NCBI GenBank assembly: GCA_964291265.2
Contig: OZ219747.1
Coordinates: 2,528,001 to 2,592,000 of the forward strand
DNA from: Alphaproteobacteria bacterium
Lineage (GTDB): Bacteria; Pseudomonadota; Alphaproteobacteria; SP197
DNA length: 64,000 nucleotides
Direction of reading: 5' to 3'
This document shows, piece after piece, positions 7,263-20,139 of this stretch; positions within the stretch are counted from its first letter, which is position 1; each line of letters starts with the position of its first letter. Position numbers and translations under genes: made by a program. The notes beneath the pieces were generated by a model, which did no database searches, was not told the origin of the DNA, and saw nothing but the letters and a program-made list of their open reading frames with translations.

Positions 7263-7529
7263 CTAGCCGCGCGGCGGTTCGATGTCCTCAAGGGCCTCGA
7301 TGTCGGCCTCGACGATGATCTGCAGACGTTCTCCGCCAGCCGTGTCGCGCAGGGAGTCGGGGAGACTGTCGAGACAGTCCTGATCATGCTCCTGCCATGC
7401 ACCGAGCTCGGCCACCGCATCGCGCCAGCGTTGCGCACGGGAGCGGCACTCGCAGGACTTTCGCTGGTGGACGGCAGGGATGCCGTATCTCTCGGCCTGC
7501 TCCGGATCACGGGGATGGAACCCGGTCAT
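7263..7529 (-). pseudogene. Small MGE accessory protein (homologue of 36319-36639), degenerate N-terminus
   Basis: QRWRDAVAEL...LDSLPDSLRDT...ERLQ...ADIEALEDIEPPRG aligns with the small ORF of the IS21-like element. Confidence 0.7.
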
Positions 7530-7570: not shown

Positions 7571-8587
7571 TCACAACTCGAACTCGCCCTGGTTCGGGTC
7601 CGCGTCGGCGACGCTCCGGCAGCCGGACAGCGCCGCGACGACCCGAGGGGCCTCGAGATCCGCCGCTGCGATGGCCCAGGGCGCCCCGGTGCAGACCTGC
7701 CGTGCGGGCAGGATGCCCGTCCGGATCAGCCGGCGCACGACCGAGGGATCGACGCCGAGCTGCGCCGAGGCCTCGCCGAGGGACAGTTCGCCGCGCTCCT
7801 GGCGTTCGCCCTCGCGGTATCCCGGAATGCCGCGACGGGAACGGAAGACGCGCACCCGAACCCGGTTCCAGCCGTTGCCCTTGGTCGTCTTGCGGCCCAT
7901 GAGGTTGAGAAGCCGGGCCATCTGCTCGTCGGGCAGCTGCCGGGCCAGTCCGGCGACCAGGTCCTCGACCTCCTTGTCGGACGTATAGCGATGCTCGCCG
8001 GTACGGAAGCGCTTCACCTCGATCTCGGTATGGTCGCCGCCGCGCCAGTGCAGAAGCAGGTGCACCGTGTCCTGTCGCATGCTGGCGGTGATCTCCACCA
8101 GGGCCGCGCGCAGGATGTTCTTGCGCAGCTGCGGCGTTGCGGCCTCATGGGACCATGCGCGCTCCAGGTCGGCCCCCAGAGCCAGAAAGGCGTCACGGTC
8201 TGCGCACCCCGCTTCTCGCGCCTCGCGGGTCGCCTCGAGCGCCCGAAGCTGCTCCTCGCGCTCGCAGACCTCGGCCAGGCAGGCCTCCCACCGCGCCGCC
8301 AGGTTGTGGAGAATGTTGTGGTTGCCGGGATCAACCGCGTCGAACTGTGCCTGCGCACGACCGGCCTTGTACCGGGCTTCCTCCAGCGCCGAGGCGGCGA
8401 GTCTGATCCGTGCCGACGTATCGTCGCCGCGCCGCTCGAACGCCTCCAGCGCGGCAGCCACGCCAAGGGGCTGCGCCGCAGCGAGAACGGCCGCGCTCAC
8501 GGCCCCGTCGACCCGTACGCCGCCGAAGCCAATGCAGGTGCTGCCCCCCGTGACGACGTCACCCGGACATTGGTAGCGGTGCGACGT
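7571..8587 (-). pseudogene. Large serine recombinase, 3' half
   Basis: YQC...C zinc ribbon, coiled coil, VDPGNH, LHWRGGDHT, C-terminal HTH; joins 19097-20139 in frame (685 codons). Confidence 0.85.
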
Positions 8588-8732
8588 TAAGCGTTTGCGC
8601 GATTTTTGACGTGGATTCCGTCGGTTTTGCTTGAATTGTCTGCTGGTCTGGGGTGATTGCCCCTCGACCGACTTGCAAGAAGTCGGCCGAGGGGCTTGTC
8701 TCCGTGACGGTGAGATCACCGGAGGCCAGTCA

Positions 8733-8838
8733 ATGTCGCACGTTTCCTTCCCGGGTCCCATACTTTCCTGCGCTCATGTCTGGCCTCTCCTTGAGAGGAT
8801 TGATGCGGCCGAGGCGGAGCGCTGCCGCCTGGAGGGAT
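8733..8838 (+). pseudogene. Zn-finger accessory protein of the transposon, 5' part
   Basis: LLERIDAAEAERCRLEG continues in frame as CPHCGGRLH after the IS21-like element (205 codons joined). Confidence 0.8.
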
Positions 8839-9262
8839 TGTTGATGGCTGCATAGAACGGCGGGATTTCGGCGATTTGCCGCGCTTTGTCAGGGTCGTGT
8901 TTCTTCCCTGTTGTCAGGTCCTATTGTCACGTCCTGTTGTCGTGGTTTGAGTGTTCGGCTGGTTGTCTCCCCGAGCGCCGCCGTCTTTTCCTATTGTCGT
9001 TTTGGTCCGGTTCGGGTTCCGTCGACCTCTGCTTCGGTCTTGGTGACGGTTGCCGGGAGGGTTCCGGTTCCGAGGCACTCGCGGGATTGTTTGTCTTCCC
9101 TGTGGGCGGGTCGCGTTGTCCGGTCCCGGGGCGGCGTTTTTGCCGCCGCCCCGGGTGGATGCTAGATCGGCATCAAGAGAAAGAGCGATGCGATGCCGGG
9201 CGGAGTTGTGACGCCCCCCGGCGCAGCACCCGGACGAGCCGGTCACGGGGGACCGAACTCCC

Positions 9263-9793
9263 GTGTATTGTCGAGCCATTTTGCGTCCGGGTCCACCCCC
9301 GCTCTCGAGACGGATCGTGTGCACGACGGGACGACTGTTCAACTGCAAGCGGTGTCAGCGGCAGGTTGTTCTCTGCCGGTCGTGTGACCGGGGGCATGTG
9401 TATTGCTCCAAGGAGTGCAGGGAATCGTCCCGGATCGAGCGGCGCCGCGCGTCGCGTCGTCGCTACCAGAGCACGCTGAAGGGCCGTGAGACGGGCCGTC
9501 ACCGCCAGCGGCGTTATCGGCTCCGCAAGGCGGAGGAGGCGCGTGCGTTGAAGGCCAGGGCGGCGATGGTTGCCGAGATCATGGGCACGCAGACGTCTGC
9601 TGTGGTGCTGCTTGGCGACGTTCCGGCGGTGTCTGGAGACGCCGGTTCTGAAGAAATCGTTACGGACCACCCTTCCCGACTGCTGCCGACCTCCCTACCT
9701 GCGGTTGTGAAGGCGCGAGAGCGGCGCGAATCGCCGCTTCGGTGCGCCCGGTGCGGACGGGTCGTGACGCATGTGGTGCTGAGGGACCTGTGA
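9263..9793 (+). CDS. Cys-rich, basic accessory protein upstream of istA
   Basis: CxxC...CxxCDRGHVYCSxxC, RRRYQ...RQRRYR, C-terminal CARC; start uncertain. Confidence 0.7.
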   Translation: MYCRAILRPGPPPLSRRIVCTTGRLFNCKRCQRQVVLCRSCDRGHVYCSKECRESSRIERRRASRRRYQSTLKGRETGRHRQRRYRLRKAEEARALKARAAMVAEIMGTQTSAVVLLGDVPAVSGDAGSEEIVTDHPSRLLPTSLPAVVKARERRESPLRCARCGRVVTHVVLRDL

Positions 9794-9825
9794 TGCGGCG
9801 TTGAGGAACCAAAGGGAGGGAGTTC

Positions 9826-11319
9826 ATGGCGATCGACGAGGACACGCGGGCGACGATCGTGCGGCTGTCGCGGGCCGAGGGCTGGGCTGTGGGGACGATT
9901 GCCCGGCATCTCGGCGTGCACCACGGCACGGTGACGCGGGCGCTCAAGGCGTCGGGGCAGGAGCGGCGGCCGCGGGCCAAGCTCATCGACCCCTTCGTTG
10001 CCTTCCTCGGGGAGCGTCTTGAGGCGTCGCCGGACCTTCCGGCCAGCACGCTCTGGCGACAGGTCGTGGCTCTGGGCTACCGCGGCGGCGAGGATCACTT
10101 CCGTCACGACCTGCGCCGCCTCGGGCTGAGGCCGGTGAAGAGGCCCGAGCCGTCGCTGCGGCTGAGCTTCCTTCCGGGCGAGCAGGCGCAGGTTGACTGG
10201 GCCGAGTTCGGGAAGGTCCGCATTGGCCGGGCGGAGCGCAGGCTCATGGGGCTTCTCGTCACCCTCAGCTACTCGCGCCAGACTGTCCTGAGCCTGTTCC
10301 ACGACGCGCGGATGGCCAGCTTCCTGCAAGGCCATGTCGAGGCTTTCGCGGCATTCGGGGGTGTGCCGCGGAGGCTTCTGTACGACAACCTGAAGAGTGC
10401 CGTGGTGACGCGCCGCGGCAAGGCGGTCACCTATCATCCGATGCTGCTCGGCCTCGCGGCCCACTATGCCTTCGAACCGAGCGCCGCCTGGCCCAGGAGC
10501 CCGCAGGAGAAGGGCCGCGTGGAACGCCGTGTGCGCTTCGCGCGCACCGGGTTCTTCGCCGGGCGCGACATCACGGTCCCGCTCGGCGAGCTCAACGCCG
10601 CAGTTCGGGAGTGGTGCTTCGGCGCCGCCGCGGAGCGGCCCTGGCCGGACGACGACAGTCTCCTGGTGCGGGACGCCTTCGCCCGGGAGAGGGAGCACCT
10701 GATCGTCCTTCCCGCCGATCCCTTCCCGCATCACGAGGTCCGCCCGGTGCGCATCGACAAGACCTGCCACGCCCGCTTCGACACCAACGACTACAGCGTT
10801 CCGGGTAGCTTCTCCAAGGCCCTGCTGACGCTGGTCGCCGACCGCGACGAGGTTCGCATCCTCGACGGCGCCGACGAGGTCGCGCGCCACCGACGCTCCT
10901 ACGACAGGAAGCAGGCCGTCACCGATCCGGAGCATGCCAGGGCGATCGCCGCGGGCAAGCGGCGGGCCCGCTCCATGAGCGTCCGCGACCGGGTCCTGCG
11001 CACCGTGCCGCGGGCCGAGGAGATGCTGGCGCGCGCCGGGACCAACGGGCGCAACGTGGCCTCCTGCGCCCGGATGCTGGAGACGCTTCTCAACGCGCAC
11101 GGCGCCGACGCTCTCGACCGGGCTGTCGCCACGGCGCTGGAGCGCGGCTCGTGCCACCCCGAAACCGTGCGCGTCATCATCGAGGAGCGCCGCCGGGAGC
11201 AGGGCCTGCCGCCCCTCAGCATCGCCGACGACGGCCGCGGCGGCCGTGGCACGACGCCGCGGGGGACCGCTCTCGACGCCTACGACAGGCCCGAAGCCAG
11301 CGCCAGGAACAAGACATGA
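9826..11319 (+). CDS. istA: IS21 transposase
   Basis: PGEQAQVDW, FGGVPRRLLYDNLKSAV, EKGRVER; RBS GGAGGGAG. Confidence 0.95.
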   Translation: MAIDEDTRATIVRLSRAEGWAVGTIARHLGVHHGTVTRALKASGQERRPRAKLIDPFVAFLGERLEASPDLPASTLWRQVVALGYRGGEDHFRHDLRRLGLRPVKRPEPSLRLSFLPGEQAQVDWAEFGKVRIGRAERRLMGLLVTLSYSRQTVLSLFHDARMASFLQGHVEAFAAFGGVPRRLLYDNLKSAVVTRRGKAVTYHPMLLGLAAHYAFEPSAAWPRSPQEKGRVERRVRFARTGFFAGRDITVPLGELNAAVREWCFGAAAERPWPDDDSLLVRDAFAREREHLIVLPADPFPHHEVRPVRIDKTCHARFDTNDYSVPGSFSKALLTLVADRDEVRILDGADEVARHRRSYDRKQAVTDPEHARAIAAGKRRARSMSVRDRVLRTVPRAEEMLARAGTNGRNVASCARMLETLLNAHGADALDRAVATALERGSCHPETVRVIIEERRREQGLPPLSIADDGRGGRGTTPRGTALDAYDRPEASARNKT

Positions 11320-12017
11320 GCGAGCTCAGGGAGCGTGCCCGGGCGCTCGGCCTCCACGGGCTCGTCGAACGCTGGGACGAGGTCGCCGGGACCGCATGGA
11401 TCGAGGAGGTGGTCAGCGGCGAGGAACAGGCCCGCAGGGCCCGCAGCCACGAGCGCCGCCGCGCCGCGGCGCGGCTGCCCGCCTTCAAGCCCCTGGCGGA
11501 CTTCGACTGGACATGGCCGCGCGACATCAGCCGGGCTCATGTCGAAGCGCTCCTCGGCCTCGGCTTCGTCGACCGTGCGGACAACGCCGTGCTCGTCGGC
11601 GGGCAGGGCACCGGAAAGACCATGATCGCCGCCAACGTGGCTCACCAGGCCCTGCTGCACGGCCACACCGTCCGCTTCGAGAAGGCGCCGGAACTGCTCG
11701 AGGCACTCGCCGAGACCGTCTCGCGCAGCGAGCTGCGCCGCCGCCTCGCGATCCTCGCCAGGCCCCGCCTGCTCGTCCTCGACGAAATCGGCTACGTGAC
11801 CCTCGAAAGCCACCATGCCGACATCCTCTACGCCATCGTCTCGCGGCGCTATCAGCGCCGCTCGACCATGGTCACGACAAGCCTCGCCTTCGCCCAGTGG
11901 GACCGCGTCTTCCCCAGCGCCTCCGGCATCGCCGGCACCGTCGACCGGCTCATGCACGACGCAACCCTCATCTCCATCGACAGCGACTCCTGGCGGCTCA
12001 GGCGTGAAACCCGATAA
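11316..12017 (+). CDS. istB: IS21 helper ATPase
   Basis: LADFDW, GGQGTGKT, LLVLDEIGY, VDRLMH; ATGA overlap. Confidence 0.93.
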   Translation: MSELRERARALGLHGLVERWDEVAGTAWIEEVVSGEEQARRARSHERRRAAARLPAFKPLADFDWTWPRDISRAHVEALLGLGFVDRADNAVLVGGQGTGKTMIAANVAHQALLHGHTVRFEKAPELLEALAETVSRSELRRRLAILARPRLLVLDEIGYVTLESHHADILYAIVSRRYQRRSTMVTTSLAFAQWDRVFPSASGIAGTVDRLMHDATLISIDSDSWRLRRETR

Positions 12018-12897
12018 ACCCCGCCGCGTCGACTTCGACGCCGTCAAGCGCATGCCGTTCGAACGCATCGCCGCCGACTGGGGATACGTCCGCGACGAAC
12101 AGGCCTCGACACGCGCCAACCCCGTCCTGTGCGCACCCGGCCTGCCGAAGCTCGTCACGAAGTGCCTCAACAACGGACACTGGGTCTACTTCAACACCCA
12201 GAACGATGAAGACAACGGAACCGTCATCGACTTCATGCTCAACCGCGGACTGGCCTTCGCCGACATCTGCACCCGCTTCGCAGCACCCGACGCCGCGCCA
12301 CGCGACTTCCGCAGCCTCTGGGCCGCGGCAACGCCCGATGCGGCCCCGGACTGGCTCACCGGGCGCGGCATCCTCCCGGAGACCCTCGACACCTGCCGCC
12401 CCCTGGTCCGCCGCGACCACAACGGACGCGTCCTCTTCGCCCATCGCAACAGGAAGCGAAAGCTCACCGGCTTCGAGATCGGTCCCCCCGACGGACCGAA
12501 ACGCTTCGCCACCGGTGGAACCCGAAGCCTGTTCGCCGTCCGCGCCGGAACCGCCGCGGACCTCGAGGCCCTCGTCATCACCGAAAGCGCCGTCGACGCC
12601 CTCAGCCTGGCCCAGATCGACCAATGTCCCCCCAGCCACGCCTTCCTCTCCACCGCCGGGGCACCCTCGCGAAGACAGCACGAACAGATCAGCCTCGCCG
12701 CAAGCAGCCTGCCCAACGTCAGGACCATCGTCCTCGCCCAGGACCACGACGAGGCCGGAGAGCGACAGGCCGAAACCCTGCGCAAAAAGATGAAGCTCCC
12801 CTCCCACGTCTCGTTCCACAGACGCAGACCGCCGGAAAACGCCGACTGGAACGACGTCGTCAACGCCAGGACCAAAGAACCACAAGCGAGATCATGA
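12004..12897 (+). CDS. Toprim (primase-like, DUF3991-type) protein
   Basis: GTVIDF, WLTGRGI, VITESAVDALS, AQDHDEAG, DWND. Confidence 0.85.
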   Translation: MKPDKPRRVDFDAVKRMPFERIAADWGYVRDEQASTRANPVLCAPGLPKLVTKCLNNGHWVYFNTQNDEDNGTVIDFMLNRGLAFADICTRFAAPDAAPRDFRSLWAAATPDAAPDWLTGRGILPETLDTCRPLVRRDHNGRVLFAHRNRKRKLTGFEIGPPDGPKRFATGGTRSLFAVRAGTAADLEALVITESAVDALSLAQIDQCPPSHAFLSTAGAPSRRQHEQISLAASSLPNVRTIVLAQDHDEAGERQAETLRKKMKLPSHVSFHRRRPPENADWNDVVNARTKEPQARS

Positions 12898-13214
12898 CCA
12901 CGTCCGTCACAAGGAGACCACTCATGCCCCTCACGCCCGCCGAAAAGCAGCGGTGATACCGGGAACGGCGCAAGGCCGGCATCCCTCCCGTCCACACCCC
13001 AAAGCACCGTGACCGGCGCTCGCGACCGCAACGCTGGAACGACGCCGTGGCCGAACTGCGCTCCCTGCAGGACGAATGGCGTGACCACCTCGACAGCATC
13101 CCCGAAAGCCTCCGTGACACGCCTTACGGAGAACGCCTGCAGAGCGTCGCCGATGCCGACATCGAGGCCCTCGAGGACATCGAACCGCCACGCGGCTACG
13201 GAAGGGATACGTGA
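12894..13214 (+). pseudogene. Small accessory protein with nonsense codon
   Basis: TGA at 12954-12956 is CGA in copy 2, where the ORF is intact. Confidence 0.75.
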
Positions 13215-13808
13215 TCCCGCAAGACCCTTGAACGCGGTCACGCGTTACCATCCAGGAATGAGAACGTCTCACCCCGACGCGCCGCTCAGCCTCCCCGGGA
13301 AACACCCGGGCCGTCCAAACGACACCGCATCACGAGACTGCCGCAGCCTCTGAGCCGCAGCGACGCCCGATCCGCCGCCGGGCTGGCTCACAGGTCGCAG
13401 CATCCGCCCGAAAACACTCGACGCCTGCCGCACCCTGCAGGACGAATGGCGTGACCGCCTCGACAGCATCCCCGAAACCCTCCGTGACACGCCTTACGGA
13501 GAACGCCTGCAGAGCGTCGCCGATGCCGACATCGAGGCTCTCGAGGACATCGAACCGCCACGCGGCTACGGAAGGGACACGTAATCTCGCAAGACCCTTG
13601 AACGCGGTCACGCGTTACCATCCAGGAATGAGAACGTCTCACCCCGACGCGCCGCTCAGCCTCCCCGGGAAACCCCCGGGCCGTCCAAACGACACCACAT
13701 CACGAGACTGCCGCAGCCGCTGAGCCGCAGCAACGCCCGATCCGCCGCCGGACTGGCTCACAGGTCGCAGCATCCGCCCGAAAACACTCGACGCCTGCCG
13801 CACCCTGC
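13063..13808 (+). repeat. 370-bp tandem duplication overlapping a decayed toprim copy
   Basis: ccctgc anchors at 13063, 13433, 13803; about 13705-14020 is a deleted, diverged copy of 12300-12870. Confidence 0.85.
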
Positions 13809-14182
13809 GCCGCCGCAACCGCAACGCACGCAGCCTCTTCGCCCAGCGCAACAGAAACCGTCAGCTCTCCAGCCTCGAGATCGTCCCGCCCGACGAACCA
13901 CGACGAGGACGGAGAACGCCAGAACGAAACCACGCGCAAAAGCCTGAAGCTCCCCTCCCACATCACGTTCCACAAACGCCGAACGCCAGAAAACGCCGAC
14001 CGGAACGACATCGTCAACGTCAATGCAAGACCAATGGGATCCAACAATAGGCAGAAAACAAAGACCGGGCGGACCTTCGTCCAATGCCGCACGTTCTCCT
14101 GTCGTGGTCACCCACTCACACGATCAGCGCCCAAAAGAGCGGTTCTCCGCCAATATCCCGCCGTTCTAAATCGCCGCCGACA

Positions 14183-14696
14183 GGGATGCCCGCATTGCGG
14201 CGGTCGTCTTCACAGCGCGCGGTATCCGCGCAAGCCGCACGCGCTTGCGCCTGCTCTTCGCGGCGACAACCGCCGTTTCAGCTTCTGCTGTGCTGAGTGC
14301 AGGAGCCGGACGACTCCGCCCTCGGTGCGCTTCTTCGGCCGGAGGTTCCGTGCGGCGCCGGTATACCTGGCTGCGAGCCTCCTGGTTCTGTGCGGCAGTG
14401 TTCCCCTGGCGAAGGCGAGCCGCATGTCTGGCATCCCGGAGAGGACGCTTGGCCGGTGGCGTCGATGGTGGCGGGAGAGGTTCCCGGCGACGGCGGCGTG
14501 GCGCTGGAAGCGTGGCGATCTGGCGGTGGAGGCGGACGAGCCTCCGCTTGTGGCCCTGGTGCGCTTGATGCGCGGCGGATCGTTTCGATCGCGCCTTCTG
14601 CGGAGCCTGGTCTGGCTCATGCCGTGGACCGGCTTCTGCAGGATCGTCGATGGTCTGTCGCCGCCCGCAGAGAGTGCCTGTAGTGCGATGACATAG
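14183..14696 (+). pseudogene. Zn-finger/HTH accessory protein, 3' part
   Basis: CPHCGGRLHSARYPRKP, RFSFCCAECRSRTTPPSVRF, RTLGRWRRWW. Confidence 0.8.
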
Positions 14697-14718
14697 GACC
14701 GTATAGGGCCTTCCTCCC

Positions 14719-16236
14719 ATGGGACGACGAGGGAGGAAGGCCGTCGTGGTGACGAAGGACGAAGCGGACGCCGGGGACGCCTGGACGCGGCTGCGCTTTG
14801 CGGTGGTTGGCCCGCTGCTGGCGTCGCCGCCGCCGAAGGGGGGTCTGCGGGCCGAGCTTCAACGGCTGTCGCGGCGGGACTGGGAGCATCCCGTCAGGGG
14901 CGGCACGATCCGCTTCTCGGTGTCGACGATCGAGCGCTGGTACTACAAGGCGCGGTCGGCCGACCGGGATCCGGTGCGGGCGCTGCGCCGTCGGGTGCGC
15001 TGCGACGCCGGTCGTGCGCGGAGCGTCTCGCCCCTGCTGATGGCGGCCTTGCGCGACCAGTACAGGGCGCACCCCACGTGGTCGGTTCAGCTCCACCACG
15101 ACAACCTTTGCGCGCTGGTCGAGGCCGACCCTTCGCTCGGGCCGATGCCGTCCTATGCGACGCTGACCCGGGTCATGCGTTCGGCGGGCCTGGAGCGGCG
15201 GCGGCGGCAGCGGAAGTTCGGTGGTGAAGCGGAGCGGCCTGCGGTCGAGGGGCGCGAGGTGCTGAGCTACGAGGTCTCGCGCAGCCATGCCCTGTGGCAC
15301 GCCGACTTCCACCATGCGCGGACCTGTCGCGTGCTGACGCCGTCCGGGGAGTGGAGGACGCCGATCCTGCTCAGCTTCATCGACGACCACTCGCGTCTCG
15401 TCTGCCACATGCAGTGGTATCTCGGGGAGACCACGGAGATCTTCGTTCACGGCATCAGCCAGGCCTTCATGAAGCGAGGGCTGCCGCGGTCCCTTCTGAC
15501 CGACAACGGATCGGCGATGACGGCCGGGGAGGTGCAGGAGGGACTGCACGCCCTCGGCGTGCTGCACCACCACACGCTTGTCCGCAGCCCGTACCAGAAC
15601 GGCAAGCAGGAGGTGCTGTTCGCCCAGGTCGAGGGCCGCCTGATGGCGATGCTCGAGAACGTCGAGACCCTGACCCTGCAGGACCTGAACGACGCCACCG
15701 TCATCTGGGTCGAGCGCGAGTATCACCGCCGCGTACACCGCGAGACGGGGGTCACGCCGCTCAGGCGCGTGATCGACAGCGAGGACGCCTCGCGGACATG
15801 CCCGGACAGCAGCGAACTCCGGGCCGCCTTCCGCATCAAGGTGCGTCGCAAGGTGCGACGCTCCGACGCCACGGTGACGGTGGCGAGTGTCCGCTATCAA
15901 CTGCCGGCGCCGTGGCGCCACCTGCGCGAGATCGACCTGCGCGTCGCCCGCTGGGACCTCTCCGGCATCGACATGGTCGACGGCCGCACCGGGGACCGCA
16001 TCTCGACCCTGCGTCCGGTGGACAAGTCTCGCAACGCCGAGGGGCTCCGCCGCCGGACCGGGCGCCGGAGAGAAGACGACGAGGTGAAGCCACAGACCGG
16101 GCCGGCGCCGCTGCTCAAGCGCCTGCGCGACGAGCAGGACGCCACCGGCCTGCCCCCGGCATGGTTGCCCTTCGGCAAGGATGCCGGCCCGAACGACGAA
16201 GGCAAGGACAACAACGATCAGGGAGACATGTCATGA
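14719..16236 (+). CDS. DDE integrase-type (Mu/IS481/TnsB-like) transposase
   Basis: STIERWY, LWHADFH, FIDDHSR, LTDNGS, YQNGKQE; Mu-like C-terminal region. Confidence 0.9.
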   Translation: MGRRGRKAVVVTKDEADAGDAWTRLRFAVVGPLLASPPPKGGLRAELQRLSRRDWEHPVRGGTIRFSVSTIERWYYKARSADRDPVRALRRRVRCDAGRARSVSPLLMAALRDQYRAHPTWSVQLHHDNLCALVEADPSLGPMPSYATLTRVMRSAGLERRRRQRKFGGEAERPAVEGREVLSYEVSRSHALWHADFHHARTCRVLTPSGEWRTPILLSFIDDHSRLVCHMQWYLGETTEIFVHGISQAFMKRGLPRSLLTDNGSAMTAGEVQEGLHALGVLHHHTLVRSPYQNGKQEVLFAQVEGRLMAMLENVETLTLQDLNDATVIWVEREYHRRVHRETGVTPLRRVIDSEDASRTCPDSSELRAAFRIKVRRKVRRSDATVTVASVRYQLPAPWRHLREIDLRVARWDLSGIDMVDGRTGDRISTLRPVDKSRNAEGLRRRTGRRREDDEVKPQTGPAPLLKRLRDEQDATGLPPAWLPFGKDAGPNDEGKDNNDQGDMS

Positions 16237-17063
16237 ACCGCCAACACCTCACCCATTACGGCCTCAAGTGGAACCCCTTCGCCGCCGACCTGCCGGTCGA
16301 GGGCCTTCTCGCAACGCCCGCGATCGACAGCTTCTGCCGCAGGATCGAGCGTCAGCTCGTGCGCCAGGGCGGCTTCGCCGTGGTGGCCGGCGAGCATGGC
16401 ACCGGCAAGAGCGTCGCCCTGCGCCTGCTCGACGAGCGTCTCGAGACCGCGGAGGGCCTCGACGTCGCCGTGCTCGCCCATCCCTCGTCGAGCACCGCAG
16501 ACTTCTACCGCGAGATGACCGACCTCTTCGGCATCACGACACTGCGCCGGAACCTCTGGGCCGGCTTCAAGGCCCTGCGCGAGTGCTGGCTCACCCATCT
16601 CGAGGACACCCGCATGCGCCCGGTCCTGCTCGTCGACGAGGCCCAGGAGATGCCGCAGGCCGTGCTCACCGAACTGCGCCTGCTCGCCTCCACGGAGTTC
16701 GACTCGCGCGCCATCCTCAGCGTCGTCCTGGCCGGCGACAGCCGCCTGCTCGCCAAGCTGCACAGCCCCGACCTGCAAGCCGTCGCCTCGCGGGTCCGTC
16801 AACGCCTCGTCATGACGCGCTGCGAACCCGACGAACTGCTCCGCCTGCTCGACCACCTGCTCGACGCCGCCGGCAATCCAGGCCTCATGACCCCCGGCCT
16901 CAAGGAGACCCTCGTCGTCCATGCAGACGGCAATCCGCGCTCCCTGACCATCCTCGCCGACAACCTCCTCGCTGTCGCCCTCGACACCGACCGCGAGGTG
17001 CTCGACGAAAAGCTCTTCCTCGAAACCTGGGGCGAACCCATCCCGCCGAGGCGCACACGATGA
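16233..17063 (+). CDS. ExeA/TnsC-like AAA ATPase
   Basis: YGLKWNPF, GEHGTGKS, LLVDEAQ, GNPRSL; ATGA overlap. Confidence 0.88.
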   Translation: MNRQHLTHYGLKWNPFAADLPVEGLLATPAIDSFCRRIERQLVRQGGFAVVAGEHGTGKSVALRLLDERLETAEGLDVAVLAHPSSSTADFYREMTDLFGITTLRRNLWAGFKALRECWLTHLEDTRMRPVLLVDEAQEMPQAVLTELRLLASTEFDSRAILSVVLAGDSRLLAKLHSPDLQAVASRVRQRLVMTRCEPDELLRLLDHLLDAAGNPGLMTPGLKETLVVHADGNPRSLTILADNLLAVALDTDREVLDEKLFLETWGEPIPPRRTR

Positions 17064-18007
17064 TCGGCCTGCCAACCCGCAGCCCGGCCGAACTCGAGGA
17101 CCGGCCAACCGAGGGGCAGTGGCTCGTCGACAGCCTGTGGGGCCGCGAGGCCGTCGGCATCATCGGCGGCGAACCCAAGTGCGGAAAGTCCTTCCTCGCC
17201 CTCGATCTCGCCGTCGCCGTCGCCGCCGGCGTCCCCTGCCTGCGCCGCTTCCCGGCCATGCACCCCGGACCGGTGCTCATGTTCGCCGCCGAGGACGCCG
17301 GCCACATCGTGCGACGCCGCCTCCAGGGCATCGCCGCCGCAGCCGGCGCCGACTTCGACACCCTCGACATCGCCGTCATCGACGTCCCCGCACTGCGCCT
17401 CGACCACCCAACCGACCGCCAGCGCCTGCTCGAGACCGTCGAGCGTCACGGCTCCCGCCTGCTCATCCTCGACCCCCTCGTCCGCCTGCACGGCGTCGAT
17501 GAAAACGCCGTCGCCGAGATCGCGCCGATCCTCGGCTTCCTGCGCGACGTGCAGCGACACTCCGGCGCCGCCGTGCTGCTCGTCCACCACGCACGCAAGA
17601 GCGCCGCCAGCCGGCCCGGACAGGCCCTGCGCGGAAGCAGCGAGCTGCACGCATGGGGCGACAGCAACCTCTACCTGCGGCGCCGCCACGAAACCATCCT
17701 CATGACCGTCGAACACCGCGCCGCACCCGGACTCGCCGATCTCGACATCGAACTCACCGACAGCGGCAACGGAGCCGCCCTGCAGCTGCGGCAACAGGAA
17801 CCCGACGGCGCCAGGCCGCAGCCGCCAACCCCCGAACAGCGCATCGTCCAGGTCCTCGCCGACGCCGATGCCCCGCTCTCGCTGCGCCAGGTCCGGGACC
17901 GCGTCCCAACACGGAACACGACCGTCGCCACGCTTCTAGCCAAGCTCGTCCAGGAAGGACGTGTCGCACAGGACGGTCCCGGTGCCTATCGCGTCGCCAA
18001 AGCCTGA
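17060..18007 (+). CDS. RecA-fold RepA/AAA_25-type helicase with C-terminal HTH
   Basis: QWLVDSLW, GGEPKCGKS, AAED, LILDPL, LVHHARK, LRGSSELHAW. Confidence 0.88.
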   Translation: MIGLPTRSPAELEDRPTEGQWLVDSLWGREAVGIIGGEPKCGKSFLALDLAVAVAAGVPCLRRFPAMHPGPVLMFAAEDAGHIVRRRLQGIAAAAGADFDTLDIAVIDVPALRLDHPTDRQRLLETVERHGSRLLILDPLVRLHGVDENAVAEIAPILGFLRDVQRHSGAAVLLVHHARKSAASRPGQALRGSSELHAWGDSNLYLRRRHETILMTVEHRAAPGLADLDIELTDSGNGAALQLRQQEPDGARPQPPTPEQRIVQVLADADAPLSLRQVRDRVPTRNTTVATLLAKLVQEGRVAQDGPGAYRVAKA

Positions 18008-18044
18008 CCGCAACAACCAGGCGCAAAACGCCCCGACGCCAGGC

Positions 18045-18106
18045 GGTTCCCGGTTCCCGGTTCCCGTTCACCCTGGGAGTTCAGGTGGGAACCGCCAACG
18101 GGAACC
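18045..18106. repeat. Inverted iteron-like cluster
   Basis: GGTTCCC at 18045, 18052, 18059 facing GGGAACC at 18087, 18100. Confidence 0.7.
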
Positions 18107-18141
18107 ACCCCCCGTCCACCACGCAGGAGGCTCGACAGACC

Positions 18142-19005
18142 ATGATCCGGTCCTGGGACAATCAGCATCTCGATGACATCCGCAACCAGCCCCTCGAACC
18201 ACTCGCCCTGCGGCTCGGCTACCGAAGAGACCCGCGCGACCCGCGACGCTTCAAGCGCCACGGATCCGTCATCAGCGTCAACCGACAACGCTGGTTCGAC
18301 CACATCACCCAGTCCGGCGGTGGCGGCGCCATCGATCTCGTCATGCATGCACACCGCTGCAGCTTCAACGACGCCGTCGCACTCCTCACCGCACGCTCCG
18401 GCGGCAAGGGGCCGAGAACACCAACGCACTGCGAGGAAACCTGGCACGCCGTACGCCACTACCTCGCCCATGACCGCCGCCTGCCAGACCGTTGCCTGGA
18501 CGCTTGCCGACAGCACGGCCTCGTCGCCGCCGACGAACGCAGAAACGCCGTCTTCACATGCACCAACGCACGAAGAGACGTCTCCGGCGCCGAGATCGTC
18601 GGTACCGTCCCCAACGCAGACGGAAAGCAGTACAGAGCCATGGCGCGTGGATCACGCAAGGCCGCCGGCAGCTTCTGGATCCCCGTGGACCGCTCCATGC
18701 CACGCACCATCATCATCACCGAAAGCGCCATCGACGCCCTCTCCGCATGGTGCCTCAAGGAATGTCGGCAATCCGCTACCGTGATCCTGTCAACCGCCGG
18801 CATCGCTTACCGTCTCCCAACATGGGCCGAAGCCTGGACGCCAAAGCGCATCCTCGTCGCCTTCGACGCCGATCCCGTCGGAGAACAGGCCGCCGAGCGC
18901 CTCGTCAGCCAAGACCCAAGAGCTCTCCGCATGAGACCCCCAGACGGACACAAAGACTGGAACGACGTCCTCAAGGCACGAACACCAGCCTTCCCTTCCA
19001 AGTAG
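18142..19005 (+). CDS. Toprim (DnaG-like primase, DUF3991-type) protein
   Basis: WFDH...GGGAIDLVMH, ITESAIDALS, AFDADPVG, KDWND; RBS AGGAGG. Confidence 0.88.
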   Translation: MIRSWDNQHLDDIRNQPLEPLALRLGYRRDPRDPRRFKRHGSVISVNRQRWFDHITQSGGGGAIDLVMHAHRCSFNDAVALLTARSGGKGPRTPTHCEETWHAVRHYLAHDRRLPDRCLDACRQHGLVAADERRNAVFTCTNARRDVSGAEIVGTVPNADGKQYRAMARGSRKAAGSFWIPVDRSMPRTIIITESAIDALSAWCLKECRQSATVILSTAGIAYRLPTWAEAWTPKRILVAFDADPVGEQAAERLVSQDPRALRMRPPDGHKDWNDVLKARTPAFPSK

Positions 19006-19096
19006 CCTTCAAGAACCGCAAACCAAGCGCAGCGCGAAAGCTCATGTCCACTAAATTGCCCGATCAACGCATCATCAATCTGCCTGAAGGCGCTCA

Positions 19097-20139
19097 GACG
19101 TGCCGTTGTCCGCAATCTGCATCCGCCGGCCGCAGCAGCCGCAGCGCAGAAGGCCGGCCAGAAGCGCCTTGCCGGCCCGCGGCGCCCCCCGGTTCCCCAC
19201 GGTGTTCGCCTCGATCACCCTCCGGTTCCTCTCGTACTCGTCCCAGCCGATGTAGCCCTCGTGGCGGTCGCGCAACAGAACCGACCATGCGGCCTCGGGC
19301 TTCATGATCCCTCGGCGTACCTTCCTGGTCCCGCCAGCGTCAACCGTCACCTCCTGGCGCCGGCGCCCGTACACATAGGCGCCGGCGTAGAGCGGGTTGC
19401 TGAGCATCAAGGCCAGCGTCGAGTTCTGCGGCACCCGCCACGCGATCCCGCCACCCTTGGGGTCGCGAACCGGGATCCTGATGTCGCGCTTGCGGAACCA
19501 GAGATGGACCTGACGGATGCTGCGCAGTTCGCGGAACTTCCGGAACACCAGGTCGATCGCGTCGCGCTGGTGCTGGTCCGGCGTCTTCTCGATGCCGTGA
19601 CGGTCGACCTTCTCGAAGCCGGCCGGCAGGTGCAGGAACAACTCCCCGCGCTCGGCCAGCGCCTGGCGGCTCTCCAGGGACCGCTGGCGGAACACCGCAA
19701 GCTCCATGTCCGCAAACTGGCCCTTGAGACCCAGAAAGGCCCGGTCGTCGACCATCGCCGGATCGTGGATCCGCTCGCGGTCGCCGACCAGGCAGCCGAC
19801 GACGGCGCAGATCTCCAGAAGCGCGTGCCAGTCCCGACCATTGCGCGCCAGACGCGAGGCCTCAAGGGCCAGGACAAGGCCGACCGTGCCGCTGCACACG
19901 GCCTGCAGAAGGCGCTCGAAGCCCGGACGCCTCACCCCGCCGCCCGAAACGCCAAGATCGTCGTCGATCACCTCGACCTTCGCAAAGCCCAGCCCCCGGG
20001 CATGATCCTCGAGGGCGTACTGCAGCTTGCGCCGCTCGACGTGGTTGCGCACCTGCATCTCGCTCGACTGACGGATGTACACGATCGCCGAGCGCGCCAG
20101 GTGGCCGGCGGTCAGCCGCGCGTCACGCATCACCGTCAT
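19097..20139 (-). pseudogene. Large serine recombinase, 5' half
   Basis: AIVYIRQSS, DDDLGVSG, RPGFERLL, EASRLARN, NPLYAG, LLAGLLRCGCCG. Confidence 0.9.

Follow-up and report, generated by a model that had tools for sequence, protein, structure and literature searches.

A 5.2-kb bacterial transposon that carries its own helicase and primase genes is present six times in the genome of an alphaproteobacterium (assembly GCA_964291265.2). One copy, itself interrupted by a second transposon, occupies positions 8588-19096 of the window analyzed here, a 64,000-nt stretch of contig OZ219747.1 (forward-strand positions 2,528,001 to 2,592,000). Its genes and ends mark the element as a relative of Tn6049 and not Tn6049 itself. 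Between the helicase and primase genes lies a palindrome that we regard as a candidate origin, and we put at about even the chance that helicase, palindrome, and primase make up an optional module of the rep-ori-primase kind through which a Tn6049-type copy-out/paste-in transposon is amplified. New here are the live six-copy element with both genes, the second primase-bearing chassis nested within it, and the tests applied to the palindrome and to exchange of the module; our literature search, with ISfinder, TnCentral, most subscription journals, and supplements outside it, found no description of such helicase-primase transposons. The features of the outer element, including its target-site duplication (TSD) and a helix-turn-helix (HTH) gene, are as follows.

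8583-8587, unstranded: left TSD, GACGT; all six genome copies have 5-bp TSDs
8588-8732, + strand: leader and left end, which reads TAAGCG and has a TGAC/TGAT-GG-type subterminal site near position 19; ends compared with those of five related elements
8733-8838, + strand: Zn-ribbon/HTH gene, 5′ part (full product 204 aa where the copy is uninterrupted)
14188-14696, + strand: 3′ part of the Zn-ribbon/HTH gene
14719-16236, + strand: DDE transposase, 505 aa, D196-D262-E298; 47.5% to the Tn6049 transposase
16233-17063, + strand: ExeA/GspA-like AAA+ helper ATPase, 276 aa; 52% to Tn6049 GspA
17060-18007, + strand: RepA (RSF1010)-type superfamily 4 (SF4) helicase, 315 aa, C-terminal winged helix at about residues 255-315
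18045-18106, unstranded: palindrome of three GGTTCCC, a CCCTGGG core, and two GGGAACC; candidate origin or helicase loading site
18142-19005, + strand: DUF3991+Toprim primase, 287 aa, DnaG/T7-type fold
19006-19096, + strand: right end (TGAGCG read from outside) with repeated TGAT-GA/TGAT-CG/TAGT-GG subterminal sites
19097-19101, unstranded: right TSD, GACGT
19102-20139, − strand: target, 5′ half of a large serine recombinase gene (3′ half at 7571-8587)

Removal of the insert in silico restores a serine recombinase frame of 684 aa with zero internal stops, and an unsplit allele of 99.0% identity lies at C2:3295931-3297985 of the same genome. Once a nested 5.3-kb element of the IS21 family is subtracted, the outer transposon measures 5,160 bp. 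Its six full copies are 99.4-100% identical; the IS21 element interrupts two of them and leaves four whole. Each sits at a different site within a perfect 5-bp TSD. In all six, the transposase, ATPase, helicase, and primase frames occupy the same positions and contain no internal stop. Matching TSDs also flank the copies in two other genomes (6/6 and 2/2), so that every one of the 14 copies delimited across three genomes has them. The five genes are co-directional, with Pfam matches to rve, AAA_22, AAA_25, and DUF3991+Toprim, and ATGA overlaps join transposase to ATPase and ATPase to helicase. Related elements have ends in common of the form TG(A/T)G(C/T)G, with TGAT-G-type sites about 19 bases inside; the left end here reads TAAGCG where the relatives have TGAGCG. 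An Rfam scan of the element returned no match.

Several of these features had been proposed in a preliminary description of this DNA made from the sequence alone. The flanking 5-bp duplication and the five co-directional genes, three of them joined by ATGA, are borne out, as is the portrayal of a compact transposon with helicase and primase genes, given their intact catalytic residues and signs of purifying selection (below). Its statement that there is no other cargo is accurate for the de-nested 5,160-bp element and not for the span in the window, because the nested IS21 element brings its own Zn protein and primase. The ends are TAAGCG and TGAGCG rather than TGT..ACA; the start of the primase ORF is corrected to 18142; and the palindrome had been overlooked.

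Tn6049 is present in 12 copies, encodes a gspA-like ATPase, and makes a 4-bp TSD according to the accessible parts of its reports (PMC2864759, PMC4739549), which do not cover the mechanism. Tn6049, from Cupriavidus metallidurans CH34 and Pseudomonas aeruginosa pHS87a, shares with our element its multiple copies and the order of three core genes, encoding a Zn/HTH protein, an IS481-like DDE transposase, and a GspA/ExeA ATPase in tandem. Both end in short, imperfect terminal repeats of the TG.G type, and TGAT-G sites lie subterminally. The Zn-ribbon/HTH protein matches Tn6049 gene 1 at 46% over 137 aa; its neighbors in Atlas include DUF6431 clusters, which serve as a lead only. Of 96 transposases, at least 95% keep D196-D262-E298. 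When plasmids were searched with the transposase, 22 records matched, 18 of them from Cupriavidus, and the match on pMOL28 (47.5%) sits in a 3.5-kb element bearing the published Tn6049 ends. Tn6049 itself, however, is 3.5 kb long, has a 71-aa fourth gene, and makes a 4-bp TSD on pHS87a, whereas the element here is 5.16 kb long, carries helicase, palindrome, and primase, and has a 5-bp TSD. The small fourth gene recurs, at 57-80 aa and with an acidic-Phe tail, in Tn6049 and some relatives (L161:5309-5524, L162:6263-6478, L011, L043); the tail presumably resembles SSB C-termini.

Other placements were tried and rejected. Among the element's genes, no Pfam or NCBIfam match to TnsA, TniQ/TnsD, a resolvase, or the Mu C-terminal domain was found, and with a core of Tn6049 type the earlier label “Mu/Tn7-like” is dropped. 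TGT..ACA ends define Tn7-like elements, and neither these nor TniQ or TnsA are present here. The outer element has neither an NF033546 nor an IstB match, as IS21 membership would entail. For the IS481 family, NF033577 gave 110 bits against a cut-off of 224, and the element has five genes against the single gene of those insertion sequences. Solved-structure searches with the transposase and ATPase returned nothing below E 0.07.

The profile of the helicase has a sole match among solved structures, RSF1010 RepA (E 2.2e-15), and its model (predicted local distance difference test, pLDDT, 86.6) superposes best on the same protein (1g8y, Z 22.9, root-mean-square deviation 2.7, 217 residues; next Z 19.0). 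Residues K43, E78, D138, and H176-H177 are conserved across 78 homologs, and HTH fold matches together with the model place the winged helix at residues 253-315. The RepA-type fold is common to the element and RSF1010 (IncQ), but RSF1010 RepA is without the winged-helix tail (the alignment covers residues 3-244 only), and RSF1010 has RepC and RepB′ where the element has a DnaG/Toprim-type primase; neither the RepC initiator nor the RepB′ primase has a Pfam match among the element's genes. A RepB-type primase does fill the same slot in three related elements.

The primase resembles DnaG more in predicted structure (pLDDT 92; best Foldseek matches Aquifex DnaG, E 1e-7, and T7 primase, E 3e-7) than in sequence, for which the match to DnaG/T7 primases is weak (E 0.007). 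Residues E194, D198, D242, and D244 are invariant in 95 homologs. Nei-Gojobori estimates of dN/dS are 0.35-0.59 for the primase (6 pairs), 0.26-0.48 for the helicase (16 pairs), and 0.21-0.45 for the transposase (16 pairs). By these ratios the helicase and primase genes, like the transposase gene, are under purifying selection. Prediction of a helicase-primase complex gave no verdict (score 0.00). At E 1e-15, primase matches occur in 7 of 22 same-genus genomes and in none of a class-wide draw of 400. Among 13 primase loci in same-genus genomes, 10 lie behind a helper ATPase or helicase gene, and one genome (G405) has a 4.0-kb primase-only element with 15 matches.

The palindrome starts just past the helicase stop. 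We trained a hidden Markov model (HMM) of it on 35 of 54 distant loci and counted scores of 10 bits or more as a pass. The model passes at 23 of 28 held-out helicase loci, at 0 of 30 helicase-less element stretches, and in 0 of 560 shuffles; across the 4.8-Mb genome it matches the six element copies only. Of all 82 helicase loci, among them the 35 used for training, 69 pass, 61 within 200 bp and 8 farther downstream, and several of those that do not pass show a variant by eye. Two more helicase loci, L200 and L201, score 4.4 and 6.7 bits. Among 13 later loci, 2 of the 7 with a helicase pass, and the other 5 have a variant at 3-5 bits. The arms co-change among relatives (GTTCCC/GGGAAC, GTTACC/GGTAAC, TTTCC/GGAAA). 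Helicase and palindrome are tightly linked. Winged-helix residues 284 and 286, to either side of the invariant R285, come first and third among 309 columns in mutual information with repeat type; residue 286 is N with GGAAC in 14 of 16 cases and P with GTAAC in 6 of 6. A second recurring motif, of the GATCGGCC-CATGGCCGAAAG type, lies downstream of the palindrome in the host-related clade (L081-L097, L232, L238-L244).

A similar arrangement is known from the pri-rep-ori segment of Staphylococcus aureus pathogenicity islands (SaPIs) and phage-inducible chromosomal islands (PICIs). As described in the available portions of PMC9371898 and PMC6092414, a helicase with a C-terminal winged helix is followed there by opposed penta- or hexamer iterons just downstream. 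The adjacent primase is a further likeness. SaPI Reps, however, belong to SF3/SF6 rather than SF4, and in SaPI/PICI the primase precedes the origin within an integrase-based phage satellite, whereas here it follows the origin within a DDE transposon.

The module is not a fixed part of the family. A transposase survey took the best 80 of 142 species-genome matches, from 68 genomes, of which 11 were dropped as too short and 57 were scorable. Thirty-three of these have the helicase, two of them with the outer-type primase as well, and 24 have neither; the module is dispensable in the wider family. The fourth slot of helicase-less relatives is empty in some; in others it holds a RepB-type primase (3 loci), CHC2+Toprim (1), CHC2 by itself or in truncated form, or a small protein. 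A converse survey took the best 80 of 321 metagenome matches to the helicase, of which 77 were scorable with more than 200 bp upstream. The helicase lies directly behind a transposon helper ATPase in 74 of the 77, 57 of them on its own chassis, 9 on a distant chassis, 7 behind IstB, and 1 mixed. The helicase tree requires 7 chassis changes, and for a 43-row subset the monophyly of each chassis is rejected by approximately unbiased tests (p 1e-6, 4e-4, and 1e-8); the helicase module has been swapped between three transposon chassis. In viral contigs there are only two distant helicase matches (34-35%).

One locus, L244 (G408:C2:255000-262000), is a chimera in which IstA, IstB, and a partial primase are fused to a Tn6049-type ATPase, followed by helicase and palindrome; it is a snapshot of module exchange. 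In many Desulfobacterota elements the fourth slot is filled by a conserved motif, stem-loop-like and some 60-70 nt long, just past the ATPase or helicase gene (L052, L057, L062, L065-L067, L075-L078, L080; no Rfam match in the five scanned).

These observations can be arranged into a mechanism. In it, a Tn6049-type transposon that makes simple insertions with a 5-bp TSD would carry an optional replication module. The winged helix of the RepA-type helicase is likely what binds the neighboring palindrome of hexamers; the helicase likely also loads at this site and unwinds the DNA, after which the primase would supply primers for DNA synthesis. Synthesis is predicted to yield extra element copies, either in place at the donor, as part of copy-out, or on a circle after excision, and the transposase would insert them. 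Palindrome binding, origin firing, the circular intermediate, and the gain in copy number are all steps that we infer. Copying at the donor site or as a circle is favored because the insertions are simple and because IS21 and IS1202 are listed with circular intermediates in the part of bioRxiv 2023.06.07.543989 available. The earlier suggestion that the element replicates as an excised form is helped by the candidate origin, which fits it; no circle or replication was seen.

Copy-out replication of bacterial transposons is usually left to host restart proteins. An element with its own helicase, loading site, and primase within 2 kb makes the copy-out step testable with defined mutants, and the natural variants (helicase only, primase only, both, or neither) are ready controls. 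Such an element would blur the border between insertion sequences, satellites, and plasmids. A broader proposal, which we consider possible but doubtful, is that of a widespread class of replicon-transposons. At least three lineages of DDE/AAA+ element, IS21 and two Tn6049-type chassis, would exchange a satellite-like helicase-origin and primase cassette; the excised circle would be a mini-plasmid that replicates itself and is amplified before reinsertion, and the winged helix and its repeats would evolve as lock and key.

A number of results weigh against amplification by the module. The helicase is absent from 24 of the 57 scorable genomes and the outer-type primase from 55, and helicase-less relatives are multicopy, which bears out by half what the preliminary description had named as evidence against its proposal, relatives mostly without the two genes. 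Copies reach 6 in helicase-only elements, 15 in primase-only elements, and 12 in Tn6049 with neither; elements with one or neither gene are equally multicopy, and the module therefore brings no visible gain in copy number. With PriA, DnaG, and DnaB all present in the host, the module has no missing host function to replace. The end-joined circles and excess read depth that the preliminary description had called for did not appear: contigs of four runs held no circle junction (15 of 18 joints), although contigs drop rare forms, and in the assembly and loci no circle or tandem junction was found, the pattern matches lying inside genes or unrelated DNA. Contig depth in one run, which is not copy number, was about 300-360 for the element and 46-60 for single-variant joints, which fits six chromosomal copies with no excess. 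A helicase-less IS21-primase element (3 copies) retains a degenerate palindrome (15.4 bits), and the palindrome's center is short (about 20 bp) and GC-rich, unlike the AT-rich center of SaPI origins. The winged-helix residue and the repeats are physically linked, and the co-variation of residue 286 with the repeats is non-significant after tree correction; with 4 independent pairs (p 0.25), it is a lead only.

Some of the same evidence would suit a self-perpetuating mini-replicon that occupies the 3′ slot and aids persistence of a circle or its passage from cell to cell, with no role in transposition. The module is exchanged among three chassis, as in the chimera of G408, elements without either gene multiply equally, and the rep-ori layout is that of autonomous satellites. 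We nevertheless think this unlikely: 74 of 77 helicase loci lie in these transposons and the module is almost never found outside them, the two viral-contig matches aside; the helicase is translationally coupled to the ATPase; and the contigs hold no free circle. Less probable still is a non-replicative role, in which the helicase would be a motor for transpososome disassembly, branch migration, or excision of the kind attributed to the insertion sequence excision enhancer (IEE), or a palindrome-bound autoregulator, with the primase helping gap repair. RadA, KaiC, and RAD51 paralogs also fit its RecA-like fold (Z about 19), and IEE, in the portion of the source available, is a primase-helicase without unwinding activity that acts on copy-out intermediates. 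The likeness to IEE lies in primase and helicase activities tied to copy-out transposition; IEE, however, is a host-island fusion of AEP and SF2 domains that excises insertion sequences in trans, whereas the genes here lie inside the element and belong to other families. Against this role, the RepA fit stands clearly above the other folds, a dedicated iteron site with two arms placed after the gene is typical of origins rather than operators, and primases of three unrelated types turn up in the slot.

Improbable to a similar degree is Mu-type replicative transposition, for which the preliminary description had invoked the module: helicase and primase would load forks at the strand-transfer intermediate and give cointegrates. 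The DDE transposase with its AAA+ helper, the 5-bp TSD, the repeated subterminal sites, and a weak PHROG match to a DNA transposition protein all suit it, and intermolecular cointegrates resolved by RecA would leave the same matching TSDs. Intramolecular replicative transposition, however, leaves inversions or deletions with unmatched flanks. Simple insertion fits better than cointegration because the TSDs match in 14 of 14 copies in three genomes and there is no resolvase; the helicase site, moreover, is internal, away from the ends. The element also has a left-GT/right-CA base skew of the kind that inward forks would leave, falling at four-fold sites from +0.32 to −0.68 along the outer element and from +0.41 to −0.64 along the nested IS21 element. 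Among 1,747 single-copy genes, crudely called, none shows so large a drop (minimum −0.52). The skew runs in the same direction in most of the other repeated genes, among them 3 of 5 IS4 transposases and a group II intron; because it is common to these repeats, the skew is not diagnostic, and we rejected it as a sign of inward forks.

The nested element, which splits the Zn-finger gene of the window copy and brings a second Zn protein and primase, has these parts.

8839-14182, + strand: nested IS21-family element with genes for a Zn protein, IstA, IstB, and a primase, followed by relics of duplicated genes; TGTT..GACA ends, TSD GGGAT
9263-9793, + strand: Cys-rich Zn protein, no family match
9826-11319, + strand: IstA, the IS21 transposase (NF033546, 222.8 bits, cut-off 160)
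11316-12017, + strand: IstB helper ATPase (PF01695, E 3.6e-50)
12004-12897, + strand: DUF3991+Toprim primase, about 33% identity to the outer primase

IstA, IstB, and ends of the TG..CA type place it in the IS21 family. There are 30 near-full copies in the genome, and TSDs of 5-7 bp match in 26 of the 29 copies having both exact end words. Both nested and outer elements pair a DDE transposase with an AAA+ helper, but the outer transposase has no IS21 model match and its ATPase is ExeA-like, not IstB. IS21 elements elsewhere carry the same helicase or a related primase. The nested layout of Zn protein, IstA, IstB, and primase parallels that of the outer element. A 370-bp tandem duplication in the nested element (12977-13728) holds relics of the IS21 primase gene and of a small gene beside the serine recombinase (7264-7485), 75-84% similar. 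Multicopy IS21-primase elements of similar kind occur in genomes G404 and G408, where internal stops in the primases proved apparent only, the natural stops lying near residue 290. Metagenomic elements combine IS21 genes, helicase, and palindrome (L108, L125, L132, L140).

Single-copy genes of this genome (G000) show no half-to-half trend at four-fold sites (mean difference 0.01). In most of its multicopy elements, which belong to many families (IS66, ISKra4, IS1380, ISAs1, several IS4, and a group II intron), G and T predominate at these sites in the first half of the genes and C and A in the second, and about 23% of the chromosome, contig C2, lies within repeats.

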